Of a stretch of DNA of 64,000 nucleotides, positions 2,907 through 56,519 are shown one piece after another. The notes under the pieces are model-generated. The model ran no database searches and had not been told where the DNA came from. It saw nothing but the letters and a program-made list of their open reading frames with translations. Every line of letters begins with the position of its first letter. The stretch's first letter is position 1. The DNA comes from a virus. The translations under genes were made by a program, and so were the position numbers. The stretch is from IMG/VR virus record IMGVR_UViG_3300001102_000006; one strand, given 5' to 3'.

Positions 2907-4055
2907 TTAGTCGGAACGCTCGCCCCAGCCGTAGTCAACTACAACAGGGAATCGAGGCATACCATCTGGGGTTGGAGTAAAAAATCTTACTGTTGCCCAG
3001 TCCGGCGTGTTTCCGCTCTCAAAAAGCTCTTTGAGTTTTTCTTGTGTTCCGCGAACGCCTGCACCACACTCACGACCGTCCGGCAGTGCAAAGATAAAGC
3101 GCTTGACCATGCCAGCCCAGTTGCCGTTGCCTTCTTCTGTCCGAAGAACGTGGAATTCTTCGGACAAGAACTCCTTGCGTTTGAGTAGAGTTTTCGACCG
3201 CTTGTGTTCGTAACCGACATTGGGTAAGCGGATCATCTGACCTTCATAGCCTTCTTTGATCCACTCGGCGTACCACGTGTCGATCTGGTCGAAAGTTTCC
3301 GTGTACACGAAGTCCACAGTAATGACCATACTGTCTTTCCAGTCGGCCCAGCCAAATTCTTCGCCAAGCTTTCCAAGAATACACTGACGTTCGTAGGCGG
3401 TGGCTTCGTCCACGATGTCATAAACGTGATATTGAATCAGTCGTGCAGCTTTTTCAACATCTTCGGGTTTTGGTTTTGCTTTCCGGACCACAGATGTGAT
3501 CGTGTTGAAATCTTCGCGCAGTTCGTGATTGTAAAGCTCACCGTCGAGGATCAAATCGGGGTACAGATCGAATGCAGGACGCAGGGCATCAAAGATGTGG
3601 TCGCACGAAATGATCGGCTTGCCGGTGCGTGTCCAAAGGCCATCTGCGCGGGCAATGCAGCGAATGCCGTCAAGCTTAGGCTGCAAAACAACACCATCGC
3701 TGACGGAAACTTTTGTCTTTACCTTTTCCCAATCAGTCGCCAACATGGGCTTTGTGAAAGGAACATTGTCGATCTCGTTGATGTCCTCAAAACATCCTCG
3801 ATCTTTCTTTCGAACGTATAGTGCGGCAATTTCTGCGCGCGCTTGTTCTTCGGCGGTCGTGGCGTTGGCGCGACCGACATTCTTGGGTTCACAAAACGAC
3901 CAGCCGGATTCGACTTTCTTGCCATCTGTGATGCCAGACACGACTCGGTGCGCAAACACGTCACCGTCTTGCCCAAGCTGCATGGACCATTGACGGACTT
4001 CTCCGCCCACGCCTCGTTTGTAAAGCGGATCGTAGCTTTCGATCACCTGCATCAC
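2907..4055 (-). CDS. lig: ATP-dependent DNA ligase
   Basis: Motif I QPKLDGIRC, ILDGELY, YHVYD, EGYEGQMIR, KRSKTLLKRK, C-terminal OB fold ending MPRFP. Confidence 0.93.
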   Translation of the reverse strand: MMQVIESYDPLYKRGVGGEVRQWSMQLGQDGDVFAHRVVSGITDGKKVESGWSFCEPKNVGRANATTAEEQARAEIAALYVRKKDRGCFEDINEIDNVPFTKPMLATDWEKVKTKVSVSDGVVLQPKLDGIRCIARADGLWTRTGKPIISCDHIFDALRPAFDLYPDLILDGELYNHELREDFNTITSVVRKAKPKPEDVEKAARLIQYHVYDIVDEATAYERQCILGKLGEEFGWADWKDSMVITVDFVYTETFDQIDTWYAEWIKEGYEGQMIRLPNVGYEHKRSKTLLKRKEFLSEEFHVLRTEEGNGNWAGMVKRFIFALPDGRECGAGVRGTQEKLKELFESGNTPDWATVRFFTPTPDGMPRFPVVVDYGWGERSD

Positions 4056-8748: not shown

Positions 8749-10007
8749 TCAAAGTCTCCTTTCTCTTTCCAAGCAGTCTCAAAGTTATTGAGATTTGCCG
8801 CCATAGCCACATTTTCTTTCATCTCCTGCCACTTGGTTTCAGAGACCAAGCCGCCGGTAATGACACGATCCGCCGCTTCCGAAGCGTCTGCAATTTTGCC
8901 GTCCCACATGGAGAAAACAAGAGAAGCTTCGAGACGGGTCATCGACTTGGCCCCCTGCGGGCTGATAGCAAACGACTTCTTGTCGTCGTAGCTCAGACGC
9001 GCGTCCTTGTAAAGAGCCGCAATGTCGTCCCGAAGCCGTTCAAAACACCACCAGAACCGCTTGATGTACGCTTCCACGTCCGCGCGGTCTTCCGCAGAGA
9101 CAAGAGGAAGAAGGTCGTCCACCGTGCCTTCACGAATTGCCGTCACCAGAGTCCGCTCCGTGCGGGACGCCTCTTTGACGCGGTGAAGCGTGCTATAGAT
9201 GTCCGTCTTGACCTTGGCGCGGTGACCGTTCTCCCATTGAATCACGATGCCTTCGTCCAAATCATCGCTTTCTTTGACAGCCGACAGGTAAACGGTCGGG
9301 TCGCCCTCGACAGGATCATAGGTGCGCACAGTCGGAATGCCGAACAGTTCCGCTTGGCGGTCAACTTGTTCGGGCGTCAGATACCAACCCTCACGGTTGT
9401 GTCGAATTGCCAAAAGAACCATGTCTTCGGCATATTCCGCCACAATGCGGTTGAACGGACCAACGTATTCAAACATTGGCGTCCAACCGTGTGAGATACA
9501 GAATTCTGCGAAGCCAACGTAGTCACGTTTGTCCCCGGCAACAAAGTCTTCGGCCCACATTGCCGTGTCCGTGATTCCCATCTTGGTTCCCCAGCGAATG
9601 CCCGCAGGGGTTGGCAAAGGGCGCACCATGGAGCCATCCAATTTGTCGAGGACCCAGTGACGTGCAGAGAAGTCCAGAACGCCTACGTCCATGTCTTCGC
9701 GTTCTCCCACATTGAAGAATTTGTGGAAGGGGCGAGACACAATGGCACCAGTTTCAGTGTCGAATGCAATTCCTCGGCACTCCCGGCGCACGGCGGCGCG
9801 CTGCCACTGAGACCGTGCATAAGCAATGTCCCACGGGTCATCGGATTTTGGGGCAGGAAAGGCAGGAAAAGTGTCATTGCCCATCTTGACATAGTTCACA
9901 AAGGTGTGCCCGCTGTCCTTCTCGACAACCCGGAAACAATCGGCGTCCACATGCACGCGAACATCGTCAAGGTGCTCAATGCGCGGAAATGAATAAGTGA
10001 CAGACAT
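8745..10007 (-). CDS. T4 Rnl1-like RNA ligase
   Basis: RECRGIAF, PFHKFFN, motif I DKLDGSM, TPMFEY, DEGIVI, KVK. Confidence 0.9.
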   Translation of the reverse strand: MSVTYSFPRIEHLDDVRVHVDADCFRVVEKDSGHTFVNYVKMGNDTFPAFPAPKSDDPWDIAYARSQWQRAAVRRECRGIAFDTETGAIVSRPFHKFFNVGEREDMDVGVLDFSARHWVLDKLDGSMVRPLPTPAGIRWGTKMGITDTAMWAEDFVAGDKRDYVGFAEFCISHGWTPMFEYVGPFNRIVAEYAEDMVLLAIRHNREGWYLTPEQVDRQAELFGIPTVRTYDPVEGDPTVYLSAVKESDDLDEGIVIQWENGHRAKVKTDIYSTLHRVKEASRTERTLVTAIREGTVDDLLPLVSAEDRADVEAYIKRFWWCFERLRDDIAALYKDARLSYDDKKSFAISPQGAKSMTRLEASLVFSMWDGKIADASEAADRVITGGLVSETKWQEMKENVAMAANLNNFETAWKEKGDFE

Positions 10008-48881: not shown

Positions 48882-49514
48882 ATGGAAATCAAAGAAATCC
48901 TCGGCTCGGGAATAGAGTCCGTGTACGCCTATCACTTCCCATCTGATGAAACAGATACGATCTGGCCTATCAAAATTGGAAGAACACGGGGTAACCCGAT
49001 TGATAGAATTCGTAATCAACAAGCATCAATGAAAGAAACGCCTGTTATCGGCGTTGTTTGGCGTACAGCCAATTCTTTTTGGTTGGAGAAAGAACTTCAT
49101 GTGTCTTTTTGTGATCGCAAGCTTGACACGTTTGGCAACGAATGGTATGAGACAAACTATGATGAGATAAAGAGGGCGTGCCAAATCCAAGCACGTACCG
49201 GGGATAAGATTGTAAGGGACCCGCGACAATTAGGAGCCGCCTTACGGCGGTTTCGAACACAACGTCAGATGACCCAATCCGAACTCAAAGACGATACAGG
49301 ATTGAGACAGGGGACCCTATCGAATCTGGAAGGGGGTGGGGCCTCAAAGCTACAAACTGTGATGTCTGTTATGGCGGCATTGGATTTGGAGATGATTATT
49401 CGTCCCAGACAAAAGACTGAGTACCATGACGGCAACCCTGACAGCCTTCCAACCGGTACATTCGACCCATCCAGCGTTCTCGCAGATTACGATCCCGCCA
49501 ATAAAGGACGATAG
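48882..49514 (+). CDS. GIY-YIG-like (T5orf172-type) domain fused to a HipB-like XRE HTH
   Basis: VYAY...IKIGRT...RIRNQ...LEKELH...GNEWY; LGAALRRFR...TQSEL...GLRQGTLSNLEGG. Confidence 0.7.
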   Translation: MEIKEILGSGIESVYAYHFPSDETDTIWPIKIGRTRGNPIDRIRNQQASMKETPVIGVVWRTANSFWLEKELHVSFCDRKLDTFGNEWYETNYDEIKRACQIQARTGDKIVRDPRQLGAALRRFRTQRQMTQSELKDDTGLRQGTLSNLEGGGASKLQTVMSVMAALDLEMIIRPRQKTEYHDGNPDSLPTGTFDPSSVLADYDPANKGR

Positions 49515-50178: not shown

Positions 50179-50406
50179 CGTTTCACACATTCTGCAACGT
50201 TTATCCGTTAGGCTGATGGCTTAACGATCCGCTGGGACAGCCAAGTCTCTTGGCTGTCTAAAGTTGGAGAAGCCCGCGTTAGCGGGTCAAATATGGCCTG
50301 TTACTCCGGCTTATCGACTGTAAGCGGTAAAAGATTGCCGGTTACGCCTGAGCCGCCCGCGCAATCGTCGCACGATAAATGAAACGAATAGGTGCTGCTT
50401 CACTTT

Positions 50407-50553
50407 TTGTTTTGACGATCTCTCATTTTTGTTCTGGTGATCAATCATTTTTGTTTTGACGATCTTCCATTTTTTGATACGAGATTGTTTTGACGATTGA
50501 TCATTTTTTCTATCGCACACGCACGCGCTCTGACGAGAGTTTGTTTTGACGAT
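50407..50553. repeat. Four exact TTGTTTTGACGAT repeats (50407, 50451, 50485, 50541)
   Basis: Direct reading; T-rich non-coding context. Confidence 0.85.
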
Positions 50554-50663
50554 CAGCCGTTTTTACGTTTGCTCATTTTTTCTATAGCGAAAAAGTTGTT
50601 TTCGTCTGGCGCGTGTACGCCCCGGAGAAAAAATCTATTGAAACAAAGCCGCGTTAACCTTTT

Positions 50664-50741
50664 GAAAAAGAACAGAGTCCGCACTCCTAACCCGTCCCCT
50701 ACTCGCCCGGTGTCCGCCGCGCTTTCCTGACCTCACATTTA
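50664..50741 (-). ncRNA. Repeated small RNA, copy A
   Basis: TTGCGA-17-TAATCT promoter, TGTGAGGTCAGGAAAG, hairpin, AGTAGGGGACGGG, terminator. Confidence 0.65.
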
Positions 50742-51046
50742 GATTAGATCATTGCCCAGTGATTCGCAAGGGCTAAAATAGGCGTCTTACAGATCAGACA
50801 TTTCAGCCTCGCACCGCGCTAGACCACTAAGGCCCGCTTACAGTAACGGCACGACTCCGCGTGCTATCCTGCGCCTATCTCTAAGCTATCGCCTGCGGTT
50901 TGATTCGTCAAGCGATATAAAGGCGATTGCCGCGATACCGACTCCAACGGCAAGAAACAACGCCGCCAAGGGATTCCACATGGTCACCCATACGTTACAG
51001 AATGCCCCGATTGACATCCCCGCCCATAAATACGCGCGCCCTGTCA

Positions 51047-51278
51047 TTAGAAAAGCCCCCCGATACCATACCAAACGAAAGCGCCGAACAATGCCCAGCC
51101 CGCGCCCAGCATAACGCAATCAATCGCCTTTTCGGTGGCGATGGAAAGCGCGCGCCGTGCGGGTGACATCGCGCGCAATTGTGCCTCGCGCAAGCGCCGC
51201 GCCGTGCCTGCTACGTTCCACTTGCCATAGTCGATTTGCGCGTCAAGTGTCTCTTTCAATTGTGCTGCGGTCTGCATT
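51047..51278 (-). CDS. Hypothetical protein with C-terminal TM
   Basis: AAAGGG RBS before MQTAA. Confidence 0.5.
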
Positions 51279-51350
51279 GTGATTCCCTTTCTTTGATAAC
51301 CCTTTGTCGCATGATTCCCCGTGCCAGTCAATAGAAAATTTGCGCAACCT

Positions 51351-51366
51351 TGTTTCACGTGAAACA
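51351..51366. other. parS: parS centromere palindrome 1
   Basis: TGTTTCACGTGAAACA, exact consensus. Confidence 0.9.
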
Positions 51367-51419
51367 ACGCACGCAAAAAGACCCGCTAACGCGGGCCTTT
51401 CCTTTGCAATTGCGTGGCG

Positions 51420-51737
51420 TTAGATTGCCACGGCTTCCCCGCCTGCGGCGGTCAATTCGACCAGCCAAACGGGTTTGCGACCGCGACCGGACCACGTAAG
51501 CGATTCGTCATCGGGGTGCCGGAATTTCGGCGCGGCGGGATGCACGCGCTTGGCGTTCGGGAAAACATCCTTGACCGTGAAACCGTGCGACTCAATCAAT
51601 TCGATTGCAGCATCCTTGCACGCGGCAAGCCGTTCCTTTTCGACCTGCGGGGCCAGCTTTGCAGCATCGGCGGCAAGCGCCTTGAGCGCGGCGGGGTCCA
51701 TGGTGGAAAGGTCAATACCGTGGGTTTGGGTTGTCAT
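51420..51737 (-). CDS. hns: H-NS family nucleoid protein (HvrA-like)
   Basis: IDLSTMDPAALKAL N-terminus; PKFRHPDDESLTWSGRGRKPVWL DNA-binding motif. Confidence 0.9.
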   Translation of the reverse strand: MTTQTHGIDLSTMDPAALKALAADAAKLAPQVEKERLAACKDAAIELIESHGFTVKDVFPNAKRVHPAAPKFRHPDDESLTWSGRGRKPVWLVELTAAGGEAVAI

Positions 51738-51910
51738 GAAAAAAGTCTCCTTGGGTTTGTGGCGTTGTTCGCCGTTTCGATAAAACAGTTATTGCATGGG
51801 AAAAAACGATTCGCAAGACAAAAAAGCAAGGTAAGCCAAAATTTTTATCCTTGCATCGGCTTTGCCCCTATGTCATAAGGTATGCATCGCAACGCCAAAA
51901 AGGAATCGGC

Positions 51911-52672
51911 ATGACAAAATATAGCTACATCGGAAACCTGATCCGCGTCGGTGGTGACGCAAAAACCGTCAAAGGTAACAAGGGCGGCAAGTATGTCACC
52001 GGCATTATGTATTTGATCCCGTGGAAACATGTTATTGAGGGTAAGCGCGTCAACGTCTGCCCCATGGCTGAAACCGCCGGTTGCCTTGACGGTTGCCTTG
52101 TGACCGCCGGACGCGGGCGCATGTCAAACGTGCATGCGGGCCGCATGCGCAAAACGGAATGGTTTGCAAGTGACCGCGCCGGATTCATGGCCCAGCTTGT
52201 CAAAGATTGCGCGGGCCTTGTGCGCTACTGTGGCAAGCGCGACGTGCGCCCCGCCCTGCGCCTTAACGGCACGTCTGACATTCGGTGGGAGTCGATCCCA
52301 TGCGAGCGCGACGGGCAAACGTTCCCGCATATCTTTGCGGCATTCCCTGAAATTCAGTTTTACGATTACACAAAGATTGCGAATCGTGACGTTGAGTCGA
52401 TCCCCAACTATGGCCTAACCTTTTCCTATAGTGAGGCGAATCCAGCCTATGCAAAACAGGTTGCAATTGCCCGCGCCAAGGGAATGAATATTGCGGTTGT
52501 TTTCCGCAAGAAAGAAAACATCCCGCCGCGCTTTCTTGACCGCGACGTGATAGACGGTGACGAAACCGATATGCGCTTTCTTGACCCGCAAGGCGTTATC
52601 GTGGCCCTTTACGCCAAGGGCAAGGCAAAGCAAGACGACTCCGGCTTTGTCATTGATTCAATCGCGGCATAG
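51911..52672 (+). CDS. Phage gp88-like (radical-SAM-like) protein
   Basis: CPMAETAGCLDGCL..AGRG, RLNGTSDI.WE, FYDYTK, LTFSYSE, IDGDETDMRFLD. Confidence 0.75.
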   Translation: MTKYSYIGNLIRVGGDAKTVKGNKGGKYVTGIMYLIPWKHVIEGKRVNVCPMAETAGCLDGCLVTAGRGRMSNVHAGRMRKTEWFASDRAGFMAQLVKDCAGLVRYCGKRDVRPALRLNGTSDIRWESIPCERDGQTFPHIFAAFPEIQFYDYTKIANRDVESIPNYGLTFSYSEANPAYAKQVAIARAKGMNIAVVFRKKENIPPRFLDRDVIDGDETDMRFLDPQGVIVALYAKGKAKQDDSGFVIDSIAA

Positions 52673-53037
52673 GAAAGGAAAAAACATTCAACTAATCACA
52701 ATCGGAATCCTAGTGGCCCTTTACGTTGTTCTAGGTCACTTCTAAACTAGGCGGGGGGAATCATCCCCCGCCACAAAACAGAAAGGCAAAACCCATGGCC
52801 AAAGATAGCAGAAACGAAAAGCACGAAAACCGCGACCGCAAGCGCGACCGCGACGGGGTGCAAGCTAAGCGCCGCGATGCACGCCGCGCCAAGGCAAAGC
52901 GCCGCGCGTTTGAGGCAAGCGGAAAGCACCGCTAAGAAAGTGAAGGCTAGGCGAATTTTTTACTTGCGAATCGCCTAGCCGCATGCGATAAACAGTTATC
53001 GAAACGGCGCAACGCCACAACCCGAGGAACCTAAAAC

Positions 53038-53364
53038 ATGACACGCAATTTTGACCCCGCCCTGATGTCCTTCCTGCCGCAAAGCGTTGTTGACGCTGAA
53101 TTGAAAGCGCGCGGCGCGCAGATCACAACCGTGACGTTCGCCAAGAAAAGTGGCGAAGTGACAACCCGCACGGGCATGCCCAAAGTTTACAAGCGCCGCG
53201 TGGGTGGCGAAAAGGGCGCGATTGCCGCCGCCGCCCTGCGCGACAACGGCAACGTGTTTTTTGACTACACAAACCCCGAAGGCAACGCCGCCGGAAACAA
53301 GGGCTTTGCGTTTAACAAAGGCCGCGTGATTGCCATTGGCGACTCCGGCAAACATCCCGCCTAA
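53038..53364 (+). CDS. Hypothetical early protein
   Basis: Promoter, GAGG RBS; TVTFAKKSGEV.TR. Confidence 0.65.
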   Translation: MTRNFDPALMSFLPQSVVDAELKARGAQITTVTFAKKSGEVTTRTGMPKVYKRRVGGEKGAIAAAALRDNGNVFFDYTNPEGNAAGNKGFAFNKGRVIAIGDSGKHPA

Positions 53365-53413
53365 GCGGGCGCGGCGCGCTAGGACCGTTTCGACTGGGAA
53401 AGCGCGCCGCCAT

Positions 53414-53429
53414 TGTTTCACGTGAAACA
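53414..53429. other. parS: parS centromere palindrome 2
   Basis: TGTTTCACGTGAAACA, 19 nt upstream of TTGACA. Confidence 0.9.
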
Positions 53430-53478
53430 AGGTAGCGGTAAATTACTATTGACACCGGACCCCGAATCACTCTAATCT

Positions 53479-53556
53479 AAATGTGAGGTCAGGAAAGGCG
53501 CGCCGCCCGCGCCAAGTATGGGACGGGTTAAGAGAGCGGAGTCCGTTCTCTTTTTT
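53479..53556 (+). ncRNA. Repeated small RNA, copy B
   Basis: TTGACA-18-TAATCT promoter, same motifs, terminator GAGAGCGG-AGT-CCGTTCTC then T6. Confidence 0.65.
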
Positions 53557-53636
53557 GTTTCCAACGTTTGAACGGATTCCTGCGACCCTCGCGTCCCCTA
53601 CTTGATGCTGTCGGCATCTTTCCTGACCTCACATAT
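53525..53636 (-). ncRNA. Repeated small RNA, copy C (convergent on B)
   Basis: TTGCGA-17-TAAGGT promoter, TGTGAGGTCAGGAAAG, GATGC-CGACA-GCATC hairpin, AAGTAGGGGACG; 3' end uncertain. Confidence 0.55.
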
Positions 53637-53770
53637 ACCTTAGCCGCGCGTTGCGTGATTCGCAAGAGAAAAAAATTTCGTTTGACCTGTTTTTTGTGTT
53701 GCGAATCGTTCGGGAATATGGGAAAACAGAATCACGGAAACACAAACAGACACCTAGAGAGGTTCACACA

Positions 53771-54679
53771 ATGACTTATAATCGTTACATGAAGGGCATG
53801 AGCAACGGCGGCAACATCTTTTGGGATGGCGCAACCCCGCTTGGCAATGATGAATTGCAGCGCGCCGTGCCGTCGCTTTTCGCCACCGAGGCCCACGAGT
53901 CGCGTTCTGACCGTTTCGTGCCTATCCCTACCGTCAACGTTCTGGACGGCTTGCGCGCCGCTGACTTTATGCCCGTGATGGCACAACAGGCCCGCACGCG
54001 CATTCCCGGCAAGGCCGCTTATACGCGCCACATGATCCGCATGCGCCACCGTTCGCTGACCAATACCGCCGGGGAAGCGTTCGAGGTTATCTTGACCAAC
54101 GCCAATGACGGCACCGCCGCCTATAAGATGATTGCGGGCATTTTCCGCTTTGTCTGCACCAATGGGCTGTTTACCGGGGAAGCGTTTGACACGGTATCCG
54201 TTCGCCACGCTGGCAAGTCTGTCATTGATGACGTTCGCGATGGCGCGGTGAATATGCTTGACATGGCCCCCCGCGTGCTGGACTCGGTTGAACAATTCAA
54301 GGGAATCACCCTTGACCGTGATGAGGCCCTGACCTTTGCAGAGGCCGCGCACCGCGTGCGCTTTGCCAACGCATATGAGGCTGACCCGGAAAACCCCGAC
54401 GCCTTGCCCACGTTGAACCCTAACGCCTGCCCCGTGCAACCGCTGGACCTTTTGCGGGCACGTCGCACCGCTGACAAGACTCCGACGCTGTGGAGCGCGT
54501 TCAATATCGTGCAGGAAAACACCGTGCGCGGCGGGCAGCGGGGAATCATCCAAGGCACCAACGGCAAGGCACGCCGCGCCAAGGTGCGGGAAGTCAAGGG
54601 CATTGCGCAAACCACGGCACTGAATCAAGCCCTTTGGGACCTGACCGAAAAGATGGCGGATATCAAATGCGCCGCCTAA
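53771..54679 (+). CDS. DUF932 family protein
   Basis: SRSDRFVPIPT, YTRHMIRMR, LTNANDGTAAYKMIAGIFRFVCTNGL, TLWSAFNIVQEN, LNQALW. Confidence 0.88.
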   Translation: MTYNRYMKGMSNGGNIFWDGATPLGNDELQRAVPSLFATEAHESRSDRFVPIPTVNVLDGLRAADFMPVMAQQARTRIPGKAAYTRHMIRMRHRSLTNTAGEAFEVILTNANDGTAAYKMIAGIFRFVCTNGLFTGEAFDTVSVRHAGKSVIDDVRDGAVNMLDMAPRVLDSVEQFKGITLDRDEALTFAEAAHRVRFANAYEADPENPDALPTLNPNACPVQPLDLLRARRTADKTPTLWSAFNIVQENTVRGGQRGIIQGTNGKARRAKVREVKGIAQTTALNQALWDLTEKMADIKCAA

Positions 54680-54767
54680 ACGACAACCCCCGGCGTGGCA
54701 CGATCCGCGCCGGGATTGCCTTTGCGGTCCTGACCTACGCCTTGCTAGTGATTGGACTCGCCTTGTA

Positions 54768-55096
54768 AAAGAAAAGCCCGCTAACGCGGGCTTTTTGCTT
54801 GCGAATCATTTGAAAGGATGCGATAAATAATTATCGAAACACAAACCCAATGGAGGCCAAAATGGCTGATACTACTTCTCTCGAATATTACCTTTCACCT
54901 GAATACGCTGCTAAGTATGCAGCAGAACAAAAGGCTTTAGAGGAAAGCCGGGGAAGGGTAGCCCTAACAAAGCGGCGCAATTGGGAAGCGCTGCACGGGG
55001 AACCCGCCCCTCGATGGATGTGAAAGAAAAGCCCGCTAACGCGGGCTTTTTGTCTTGCGAATCATTTGAAAGGGTGCGATAAATAATTATCGAAAC
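54768..55096 (+). repeat. Near-identical ~73-bp terminator-plus-promoter cassettes (54768-54840, 55023-55096)
   Basis: AAAAGCCCGCTAACGCGGGCTTTTTG(T)CTTGCGAATCATTTGAAAGG(A/G)TGCGATAAATAATTATCGAAAC. Confidence 0.85.
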
Positions 55097-55116
55097 GCTA
55101 AACAAGGATAGCAATC

Positions 55117-55365
55117 ATGGCCCTCAATCTCACACAAGCGCAAATCAATGATCTTTGGGAAAAAGGTTACCGCCCTTATGAGATTTACACGAAAAACCCC
55201 GCGCCGGTTGAATACTATGGCGAACAAAAACAGGCGGGCGAAATTGGCGGCTGGGATATCAAGTTTGTTTTCGCGCGCCGCGAAACGCTGGAAACCTTCC
55301 CTTTCTTTGATTGCGTGATAGGGCAAGACGCGGTTTATTCCTGCACCGAAATTCACCACGGTTGA
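55117..55365 (+). CDS. Hypothetical early protein
   Basis: Own promoter, AAGGA RBS, terminator. Confidence 0.65.
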   Translation: MALNLTQAQINDLWEKGYRPYEIYTKNPAPVEYYGEQKQAGEIGGWDIKFVFARRETLETFPFFDCVIGQDAVYSCTEIHHG

Positions 55366-55415
55366 CAAACAAAGAAACCCTGCTAACGCGGGGTTTCTGA
55401 TTCGTTCCGCGCGCT

Positions 55416-55487
55416 AAAAAAGAGAACGGACTCCGCACTCCTAACCCGTCCCCTACTTGGCGCATCCGCCTTTCCTGACCTCACAAA
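55416..55487 (-). ncRNA. Repeated small RNA, copy D
   Basis: TTGCGA-17-TATGGT promoter, same motifs, GGCG-GATG-CGCC hairpin, terminator with T6. Confidence 0.65.
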
Positions 55488-55604
55488 TACCATACCGCGA
55501 CCCTAAACGATTCGCAACACAAAAAACAAGGCAACGGTAAATTATTATGCTTGCGAATCGCCTGCACATATGCGACAAAGGGTTATCAAGGAAAGGAACC
55601 CACA

Positions 55605-56156
55605 ATGTTTGATGCAATCGAAACTCGCGACGTTGGCGAATTCACTGTCAAGGTTATCCCTGACGATTCCGGCTCGGCTGAAAGCCCTCGTGATTGGGCA
55701 CCGCTCGGAAAATTCTTTGGCTTTCACAATCGCTATGCGTCACCTGATAAGCCCCCGGCACAAGACCCGCAAGAGGCGCGCGCCATTGCCGAACGTGGCG
55801 ACAATATTTGCCTGCCCGTGTGGATGTATGACCATTCCGGCACGTGCTACCGCGCGGCGGAAACAAACCCGTTTTCCTGCCCTTGGGACTCCGGTTGCTT
55901 TGGGTTTATCTACATCACGCGCCGGGAAGCCCGCAACATTTTTGGCTGGGCGCGAATCACTGAGGAACGCCGCCAGCAAGTGCTGCAACACCTCAAGTCC
56001 GAAGTCAAGGAATATTCGGCATGGGCCAATGGGGAGGTTTACGGCTTTGTCGTGGAAGACTCCGAAGGTGATGAGGTGGATTCTTGCTGGGGCTTTATCG
56101 GTGATCCTGAATATGCCATGGAAGCCGGAATCGACGCGGCGGGGTGCGCGGCTTGA
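55605..56156 (+). CDS. Conserved-looking phage early protein
   Basis: ESPRDW, PVWMYDHSG, CPWDSG, W.NGEVYGF, DSCWGF. Confidence 0.65.
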   Translation: MFDAIETRDVGEFTVKVIPDDSGSAESPRDWAPLGKFFGFHNRYASPDKPPAQDPQEARAIAERGDNICLPVWMYDHSGTCYRAAETNPFSCPWDSGCFGFIYITRREARNIFGWARITEERRQQVLQHLKSEVKEYSAWANGEVYGFVVEDSEGDEVDSCWGFIGDPEYAMEAGIDAAGCAA

Positions 56157-56418
56157 GCACTGCAAACATGCTGCGCACGTTATTGGCGTGCGCAGAACGC
56201 CCCGACGATAAACGCCTGAATTCGCACCTGTCAGAGTCTGACATTGCTGAAACAATTCGCCTTGCAATCGAGTGTCTGGAAACAGAACAATTCAAGGCGG
56301 ATGAATCGGAAAAGTTGCGCGCCGTGCTAGTCGATCTATCACGCGCCGCCATTGCAACGGACTCGCCTGAATTCGTGGCAATCCCCGCCGCTACGTGGCA
56401 AACCTTGCTGGACTCCAT

Positions 56419-56434
56419 TGTTTCACGTGAAACA
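56419..56434. other. parS: parS centromere palindrome 3
   Basis: TGTTTCACGTGAAACA, in a 47-bp block matching copy 2 at 46/47 positions. Confidence 0.9.
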
Positions 56435-56519
56435 AGGTAACGGTAAATTACTATTGACACCGAACAACGAATCGCCCTATAAAGGGTTATCGAAACAACA
56501 AACCCAAAGGAACGAAAAA

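Follow-up and report, generated by a model that had tools for sequence, protein, structure and literature searches.

Phage-encoded small RNAs are known as a kind. AgvB and AsxR, the anti-small-RNAs of prophages in enterohaemorrhagic Escherichia coli, and the oop RNA of phage lambda are 50 to 80 nt long, have a promoter of their own and end in an intrinsic terminator. RNAs of the AgvB/AsxR type act in trans by defined base-pairing or by mimicry of an mRNA target, some are present in several copies, and their complements can be identified. Here we describe small RNAs of a similar build in a 64,000-nucleotide stretch of viral DNA (IMG/VR virus record IMGVR_UViG_3300001102_000006; the whole stretch is called the window), where four copies, designated A to D, lie between positions 50665 and 55482. 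Like AgvB, AsxR and oop they are short and driven by their own promoters, three of the four with an intrinsic terminator, and like some RNAs of this kind they are multicopy; they differ in that searches made with their 5' end found no complement, and in that they have no sequence or Rfam relationship to these RNAs. The comparative evidence makes it highly probable that the four loci are true genes for a small RNA and that they belong to a new family restricted to phages. This well-supported judgment concerns the RNA genes as such and not the timing, abundance or mechanism of their products, and what is new is the RNA family, which is in no catalogue.

In the PeSL (promoter-early stem-loop) cassettes of T4-type phages a stem-loop is combined with an early promoter, and the cassettes are found in multiple copies in plastic parts of the genome (Arbiol et al. 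2010, PMC2839356). The units described here resemble PeSL in being repeated, among small genes, within an early or plastic part of the genome of a large lytic phage, and in having a sigma-70-type promoter with A/T-rich upstream sequence (as seen in a logo of 96 copies) and a terminating stem-loop. However, they are not PeSL. In PeSL the stem-loop is within the promoter or next to it, a Shine-Dalgarno sequence and a gene come after it, and no conserved transcript is made. In the units of the window, by contrast, about 60 nt of conserved and folded non-coding RNA lie between the promoter and a terminator or facing copy; the hairpins are located at +13 to +30 and +45 to +65, and no gene comes after them. 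The RNAs also share with CsrB, RsmX and RsmY the multicopy or multi-site arrangement, repeated GGA motifs (CAGGAA, UAGGAG, GCGGAA) and a terminator, but their GGA motifs belong to the 5' tail, to the linker and to the terminator stem, not to hairpin loops, and the Rfam rsmX/RsmY models match only unrelated terminators nearby (E 0.04-2).

The window contains four exact sites of the 16-mer TGTGAGGTCAGGAAAG, at 50722-50737 (−), 53482-53497 (+), 53618-53633 (−) and 55470-55485 (−). With up to three mismatches allowed, dinucleotide-preserving shuffles gave a mean of 0.43 matches and none of 100 reached five. An initial annotation, made from the letters alone, had proposed four paralogous RNAs sharing this 16-mer. 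This proposal stands, as does most of what had been read at the four sites: a −10 box directly before each copy; a hairpin that differs between copies and still pairs (GGCGCG/CGCGCC, GAUGC/GCAUC, GGCG/CGCC); AGUA(G/U)GGGACG 3' of this hairpin in all four copies; and a terminator hairpin with a U-run at the 3' ends of A, B and D. The limits given for the copies were right as to the four loci and need correction at the 5' end, where the leading TGT is variable in the family (AGGA, UUAU, AUUC). The RNA is predicted to start at the G of GAGGUCAGGAA, or within one base of it, because the −10 hexamer is always six bases from GAGG; its predicted length is 65-75 nt. The claim that the copies hold no open reading frame (ORF) was correct for a conserved frame, but short ORFs overlap copies B and D. 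Across the family, the first hairpin (P1) varies in length by 1, 5, 6, 7 or 8 nt, and since these differences are not confined to multiples of three, a conserved reading frame is ruled out.

Relatives were gathered by pattern scans of viral and metagenome contigs and then with a covariance model, R1 (cmsearch). Counts differ by analysis, with 91 sequences used for alignment and pairing, 94 distinct copies for U-runs and layout, and 96 distinct upstream regions for the promoter. The alignment showed that G5-A15 (GAGGUCAGGAA), G42 U43 A44, G46-G48 and G52 are invariant or nearly so; U69 is invariant, and A49, G58 G59, G65 G66 A67, C70 and G72 are nearly invariant. P1, which lies between the 5' block and G42 U43 A44, behaves in the opposite manner: all six of its pairs show two-sided changes, and pairing is nonetheless kept in 92% of cells. 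The covariation score of P1 was 0.55, compared to 0.14 in shuffles, none of 500 shuffles scored as high, and the signal collapsed when the partner columns were slid. Among 61 distinct P1 hairpins, G-U pairs outnumber A-C mismatches on the sense strand by 19 to 6, which indicates that it is the sense-strand RNA that folds, rather than the DNA or the antisense strand.

Directly flanking P1, a GAA on its 5' side is opposed to an AGUA on its 3' side, and AGUA is followed by GGGAC and then by GGANUCYG. G13 A14 A15 and (A41) G42 U43 A44, between P1 and a GUC/GAC helix, agree in the 91 sequences with the sequence signature of a loop E, or sarcin-ricin, module. The 3-bp GUC/GAC helix, which we assign tentatively, would close this loop; its middle pair, U9-A49, is replaced by U-G five times and once, through a double change, by C-G. 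The G-rich tail, GGGACGG..AGGAGUGCGGANUCYG, also supplies the 5' arm of the terminator hairpin and occurs in two forms. Type 1 (copies A, B and D) reads GG(G/U)UU(A/G)GGAGUGCGGANUCYG, whereas in type 2 (copy C) a small hairpin, GCGA-GGG-UCGC, replaces the UUAGGAGU stretch. In type 1 copies with a U-run the purine block makes up the 5' arm of the terminator stem, with the N of GANUC at the center of the triloop. The 5' half of this stem is conserved in sequence and the 3' half is free to vary, which suggests a second, sequence-specific role of the purine block. Several other structural assignments were considered and set aside. By inspection the strands do not fit the K-turn consensus, and extended 3' helices (GGGACG with YGUYC, or a CGG/CYG mini-hairpin) showed no consistent covariation. 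Neither 5S rRNA (RF00001) nor signal recognition particle RNA had an Rfam match at the loci; the 7-mer GAGUAGG shared with Rhodobacteraceae 5S rRNA is at about chance level and gives no ground for a loop-E mimic of 5S rRNA, and what we took for a resemblance to domain IV of the signal recognition particle RNA (GGUCAGG) is unsupported by Rfam.

Each unit is predicted to have a strong host-type (sigma-70) promoter. The logo of the upstream regions has T-12 in 93, A-11 in 95 and T-7 in 89 of the 96, TTG is found at −35 in 93, and the segment from −45 to −38 is rich in A/T. In addition, 88 of the 96 regions contain CGAATC, mostly starting from −22 or −21 and otherwise fused to the −35 element as TTGCGAATC. 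On the opposite strand CGAATC(A/G) reads (T/C)GATTCG. GcrA, an alphaproteobacterial sigma-70 cofactor, acts at CcrM-methylated promoters with TGATTCG as its best site and YGAKTCK as a broader one (PMC4647560), and comparison with that report shows an exact match to the best site. The CGAATC site probably informs how the RNAs are expressed and not what they do. The window copies follow this scheme, with TTGCGA or TTGACA at −35, a spacer of 17-18 nt and exactly 6 nt from the −10 box to GAGG.

R1 returned 129 matches, 93 of them distinct, mostly in marine and estuarine viral contigs, where copies typically occur at a density of 3-6 per contig of 4-11 kb. Nucleotide-level comparison of the 50.3-55.9 kb segment of the window with isolated phages showed similarity limited to the RNA itself, in the Ruegeria pomeroyi phages DSS3P8, vB_RpoS-V10, RpAliso and DSS3_MAL1; a more sensitive search added Phaeobacter phage MD18. 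Large phages of Roseobacter-group marine bacteria carry four to seven copies per genome, and DSS3P8 and V10 have six to seven R1 matches each. The surroundings have thus diverged beyond nucleotide recognition while the RNA alone was kept, which is a strong sign of constraint on the RNA element. As the initial annotation had stated, the RNA matches no recognized family: a search of Rfam 15 at the four loci returned none, even at E values up to 10. No R1 match was found in 151 sampled Rhodobacteraceae genomes, and a host homologue or a mimic of a host RNA was dismissed on this ground. A pattern scan of bacterial genomes gave chance matches alone, many within one recurring conserved coding stretch that is presumably an aldo-keto reductase. 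The motif strings are absent from the relevant papers, and the DSS3P8 and MD18 genome papers are silent on small RNAs or promoters. A separate conserved stretch, GGTCAGGAAC..GTATGGGACG followed by TTCCTGG, is present in the IMG/VR contigs L024, L026, L031, L040 and L044; it is outside the RNA family and, judged by its pattern of differences, is probably coding. The phage of the window is itself large, with five tRNA genes (Glu, Phe, Cys, Pro, Met) at 60658-64019 and, in the same 60.6-64 kb region, an alphaproteobacterial permuted two-piece transfer-messenger RNA (Rfam 121.7 bits). Sequencing runs from an algal metagenome sample, possibly the origin of this DNA, cover the window in full, and the runs found for it include none of RNA.

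Large DSS3P8-like phages of Ruegeria and Phaeobacter appear to devote four to seven of their strongest promoters to one small RNA, whose unpaired nucleotides are invariant, whereas elsewhere in the genome divergence has gone past nucleotide recognition. This degree of constraint implies an important function. Dozens of viral contigs from marine and estuarine sites carry the RNA, and with the hosts and several of the phages in culture, direct functional tests are possible.

The four copies are arranged as follows. Copy A (50665-50734, −; type 1; cmsearch 93 bits), defined by sequence and fold, has a P1 made of CGG/CCG plus GC/GC flanking a G.G mismatch, with the loop CGGACA, and ends in a 3' hairpin followed by five U. 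Its promoter (50741-50769, −), identified with the family logo, has −35 TTGCGA (50764-50769) fused to CGAATC (50761-50766) and −10 TAATCT (50741-50746). Copy B (53485-53556, +; type 1; 78.9 bits; fold z −1.98) has P1 GGCGCG/CGCGCC and a strong intrinsic terminator in the terminator scan (53530-53552, +, plus six U); its promoter (53449-53478, +) comprises −35 TTGACA (53449-53454), a separate CGAATC (53463-53468) and −10 TAATCT (53473-53478). The conserved core of copy C (53567-53630, −; type 2, with GCGA-GGG-UCGC as the hairpin of its 3' domain; 58.9 bits) is preceded by a promoter (53637-53665, −) with −35 TTGCGA (53660-53665) fused to CGAATC (53657-53662) and −10 TAAGGT (53637-53642). Copy D (55416-55482, −; type 1; 76.9 bits), placed by its fold, has P1 GGCG/CGCC with the loop GAUG and a terminator hairpin with six U, behind a promoter (55489-55517, −) with −35 TTGCGA (55512-55517) fused to CGAATC (55509-55514) and −10 TATGGT (55489-55494).

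B and C are convergent, with 15 nt between their cores, and C, which lacks a U-run of its own, runs into the back of the terminator of B. If transcription of C read through as far as about 53515, the product would pair with the antisense of the 3' half of B in a long hairpin (fold of 53515-53630, −40.6 kcal/mol, z −3.8). This arrangement is common in the family, as 44 of the 94 distinct copies face another copy head-on, usually with the same 15 nt between cores; a U-run directly after the core is present in 37 of the 94. A, C and D are on the − strand with no gene after them, and B, on the + strand, runs into C. Since no copy has a same-strand gene downstream, none in the window is a cis-regulatory leader, and all four are best regarded as independent short-RNA transcription units. 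The conserved protein genes of this region are all on the + strand (53038-53364; 53651-54679, encoding a DUF932 protein; 54850-55023; 55117-55365; 55551-56156), and each carries its own TTGCGAATC promoter and conserved leader. At 54715-54745 (−), AGGTCAGGA and a weak −10-like box lie behind the DUF932 gene, a position that in relatives holds an intact minus-strand copy; this is probably a decayed fifth copy. The 'terminal repeat' of the related phage G002 is 144 bp only, and genome ends are not usable as proof of the high-copy expression immediately on entry that the initial annotation had supposed.

As to function, we favor, at slightly below an even chance, a trans-acting RNA that docks a protein. 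The strong promoter would fire a short folded RNA that is released and acts in trans, with its invariant unpaired purines as the docking surface and a protein as the likeliest partner; the presence of several copies, with P1 hairpins that differ, would increase the dose or confer sub-specificities. We arrived at this profile because a strong promoter, many copies, drifting helices and unvarying unpaired purines go together with the lack of a complementary target. Host Hfq would be one candidate partner, in view of the U-tailed terminator and of purine runs of the A-R-N type; indeed, A, B and D end in the U-tailed intrinsic terminator that is expected of Hfq-dependent RNAs. Another candidate would be a protein of the phage itself, encoded adjacent at 53038-53364 (+). 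Of 23 related loci, 17 have an orthologue of this basic protein of 108 amino acids next to their RNA genes; DSS3P8 gp224 and V10 gp230 are orthologues, and the protein ranges from 102 to 108 amino acids. Its AlphaFold2 model (pLDDT, the predicted local distance difference test, 77) shows a helix and, after it, a small beta-barrel similar to the WYL and Sm/Hfq domains, with a VIA Z of 6.4 to the WYL domain of PafBC and of 5.0-5.4 to Hfq. A WYL-domain protein was matched in the AlphaFold database at E 2e-3, and against Pfam nothing exceeded the cut-off, GSDH being a sub-threshold match at E 0.012. The modelled Sm/WYL-like fold makes this protein a possible RNA partner, which we offer as a lead only. 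A bolder version of the docking proposal, which we hold to be doubtful, would make the RNA one half of an early phage ribonucleoprotein or decoy, in which purine-rich copies bearing loop E capture a host factor or the phage Sm/WYL-like protein; the host factor could be Hfq, a WYL-domain regulator of defense, an immune effector that targets RNA, or a nucleotide used in immune signalling. If true, this would be an RNA-based counter-defense or takeover device of a kind undescribed for phages of Alphaproteobacteria.

Several observations weigh against a discrete, folded, protein-docking RNA. The loop E assignment is drawn from the nucleotide pattern alone, and the outer pair of the GUC/GAC helix, G8-C51, is broken in 17 of the 91 copies without compensation. 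Half of the solo copies have no immediate U-run, and some of these may yield longer transcripts. The fold matches of the neighboring protein are middling (Z 5-6.4), and its synteny with the RNA lies within one phage lineage and is hence not independent. A copy of a relative was detected in two estuary metatranscriptomes, in contigs of 159-195 nt at a depth of 3-4 that include the promoter, and this signal possibly represents DNA or read-through. Finally, arrays phased at 11 bp (GAAC-N7-GAAC or AAATGTGKC type) often lie directly after the RNA in relatives, as would suit a function at a replication origin. As for the roles put forward in the initial annotation, a protein sponge of the CsrA type was not borne out and is ruled out by the absence of CsrA from the host family: PF02599 was found in none of 81 sampled host-family genomes and in none of three further Rhodobacterales genomes, while positive controls worked. 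Mimicry of a type III antitoxin likewise found no support. ToxI-like antitoxins call for tandem repeats of 34-45 nt next to an endoribonuclease toxin gene, and here the copies stand apart from one another, with a promoter each; ten neighboring ORFs, scanned against Pfam and PHROG and not against libraries of toxins and defense proteins, gave DUF932, GP88 and T5orf172 with a helix-turn-helix domain and no toxin-like match. The third role put forward, an anti-defense RNA, is a conjectural possibility.

The alternatives differ in how much of this evidence they can absorb. A base-pairing regulator or RNA sponge, which we consider unlikely though worth keeping in mind, would use the exposed G-rich, Shine-Dalgarno-like stretches (GAGG, AGGGGA, AGGAG) to pair with C/U-rich partners, such as the anti-Shine-Dalgarno seed loops of alphaproteobacterial small RNAs (compare AgvB/AsxR) or C-rich mRNA leaders. 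A single-stranded conserved 5' end, a hairpin, a linker and a U-tailed terminator are the typical build of an Hfq-class small RNA, and conservation is indeed concentrated in unpaired segments. There is also a precedent in CcnA, in which GGGG/CCCC pairing serves alphaproteobacterial cell-cycle control (bioRxiv 10.1101/756452). However, a search with the 5' segment only found no non-coding complement in 101 host-family or four phage genomes. Host genomes contain an 8-fold excess of the complement TTCCTGACCTC, but the 30 loci examined among more than 400 matches read TTC-CTG-ACC-TC(N), that is in-frame FLTS codons, mostly with an open frame around them; we therefore attribute the enrichment to codon bias and dismiss these sites as targets. 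In the four phage genomes the complement is located at the RNA genes themselves, except that two phages each have a single isolated Y-variant, TCCTGACTTC, near 21.6 kb. The best duplexes within the window were unremarkable, and its sole 9-mer site, 54722-54735, is likely to belong to the decayed minus-strand copy behind the DUF932 gene. This lack of a complement of the conserved 5' end in hosts or phages favors docking over base-pairing. The main rival with positive evidence of its own is an origin-associated transcript, even though we rate it as improbable. Transcripts are known to act at T4 oriF and oriG, at the T7 primary origin and, as RNA II, in ColE1; here the promoter and the G-rich RNA, with its G clusters soon after +1, would form an R-loop or primer or transcriptionally activate an adjacent iteron origin. 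Six direct repeats of about 22 bp (TTTTTGTTTTGACGATC...CATTTTT) lie at 50404-50580, 90-330 bp downstream of copy A, parS-like palindromes occur in the same cluster, the cumulative GC skew of the window has its minimum at about 54-56 kb, and the phased arrays of the relatives point in the same direction. On the other hand, no array lies behind B and D, both of which have strong intrinsic terminators, four to seven would be a large number of origins for one genome, the compensatory changes in the conserved hairpin favor a free folded RNA, DnaA boxes are not enriched in the window, and phage skew mostly tracks gene direction. The repeats at 50404-50580 are iteron-like and lie where no credible gene is present; they may be the mark of a replication origin or an array to which a regulator binds. 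GAAC-N7-GAAC is not enriched in the window, which has no such array; in relatives, arrays of this motif with an 11-bp phase (e.g. GAACAAACCGUGAACAAAAGG) are found downstream of RNA genes in the contigs L190 (about 9560-9640), L191 (about 3900-3990), L186, L227, L251 and others, with a spacing that we take to be that of alphaproteobacterial LexA boxes.

The remaining alternatives account for less. It is quite improbable that the conserved junction forms an aptamer by which the free RNA soaks up a small molecule, for example a nucleotide second messenger. Invariant junction and loop nucleotides next to a co-varying helix are found in riboswitch aptamers, and a multicopy, high-output design would suit stoichiometric capture, but the four loci show no similarity to an Rfam riboswitch and no expression platform controlling a gene. 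A cis-acting leader, be it an attenuator, a riboswitch or a nut/put-like antitermination site governing terminator read-through, could account for an element that starts at promoter +1 and is followed by a terminator with a sequence-conserved 5' half, and for the solo copies that lack an immediate U-run. This reading is very improbable, having been largely refuted by gene layout: no window copy is followed by a gene on the same strand, the next genes are on the opposite strand and have their own promoters, and nearly half of all copies face another head-on. We attach just as little probability to a DNA-level module, either a protein-binding or methylation site (GANTC) or a PeSL-like recombination cassette, of which the RNA would be a by-product. 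GANTC is present in the promoter and at about +58, with its middle base free, the units are multicopy in a region of small variable genes, and PeSL cassettes are known to mediate shuffling (PMC2839356). Against this, compensatory changes keep P1 paired, G-U pairs are in excess on the sense strand, and orientation and promoter spacing are fixed. The initial annotation had named a DNA site working independently of orientation and transcription as the result that would overturn its proposal; the copies instead have one orientation relative to the promoter and a fixed distance to the −10 box (T-12 in 93 and A-11 in 95 of the 96 regions). The free middle base of the GANTC at +58 is equally well explained as the middle of the terminator triloop, its flanks (G-GANTC-C) are not those preferred by GcrA, and a few copies have GAATTC instead.

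Other genes near the RNAs encode a T5orf172 (GIY-YIG-like) protein with a helix-turn-helix domain (48882-49514, +), a GP88 protein (PF17338; 51851-52672, +) and the DUF932 protein (PF06067; 53651-54679, +). Three identical 18-bp palindromes, TTGTTTCACGTGAAACAA, with a perfect parS-type core are present at 51350-51367, 53413-53430 and 56418-56435. Each lies about 15-20 bp upstream of a promoter of the form TTGAC..CGAATC, and the one at 53413-53430 precedes the promoter of copy B. The TTGCGAATC promoter together with the conserved leader GCGAUAAAUAAUUAUCGAAAC occurs four times ahead of small + strand genes, at 52957-53010, 54764-54845, 55019-55101 and 55544-55597. At 54764-54845 and 55019-55101 a terminator hairpin, AAAAGCCCGCUAACGCGGGCUUUUU, abuts this promoter, so that protein genes are preceded by PeSL-like junctions, and the leader GCGAUAAAUAAUUAUCGAAAC recurs many times in the related phage G002, between 8.3 and 13.2 kb.

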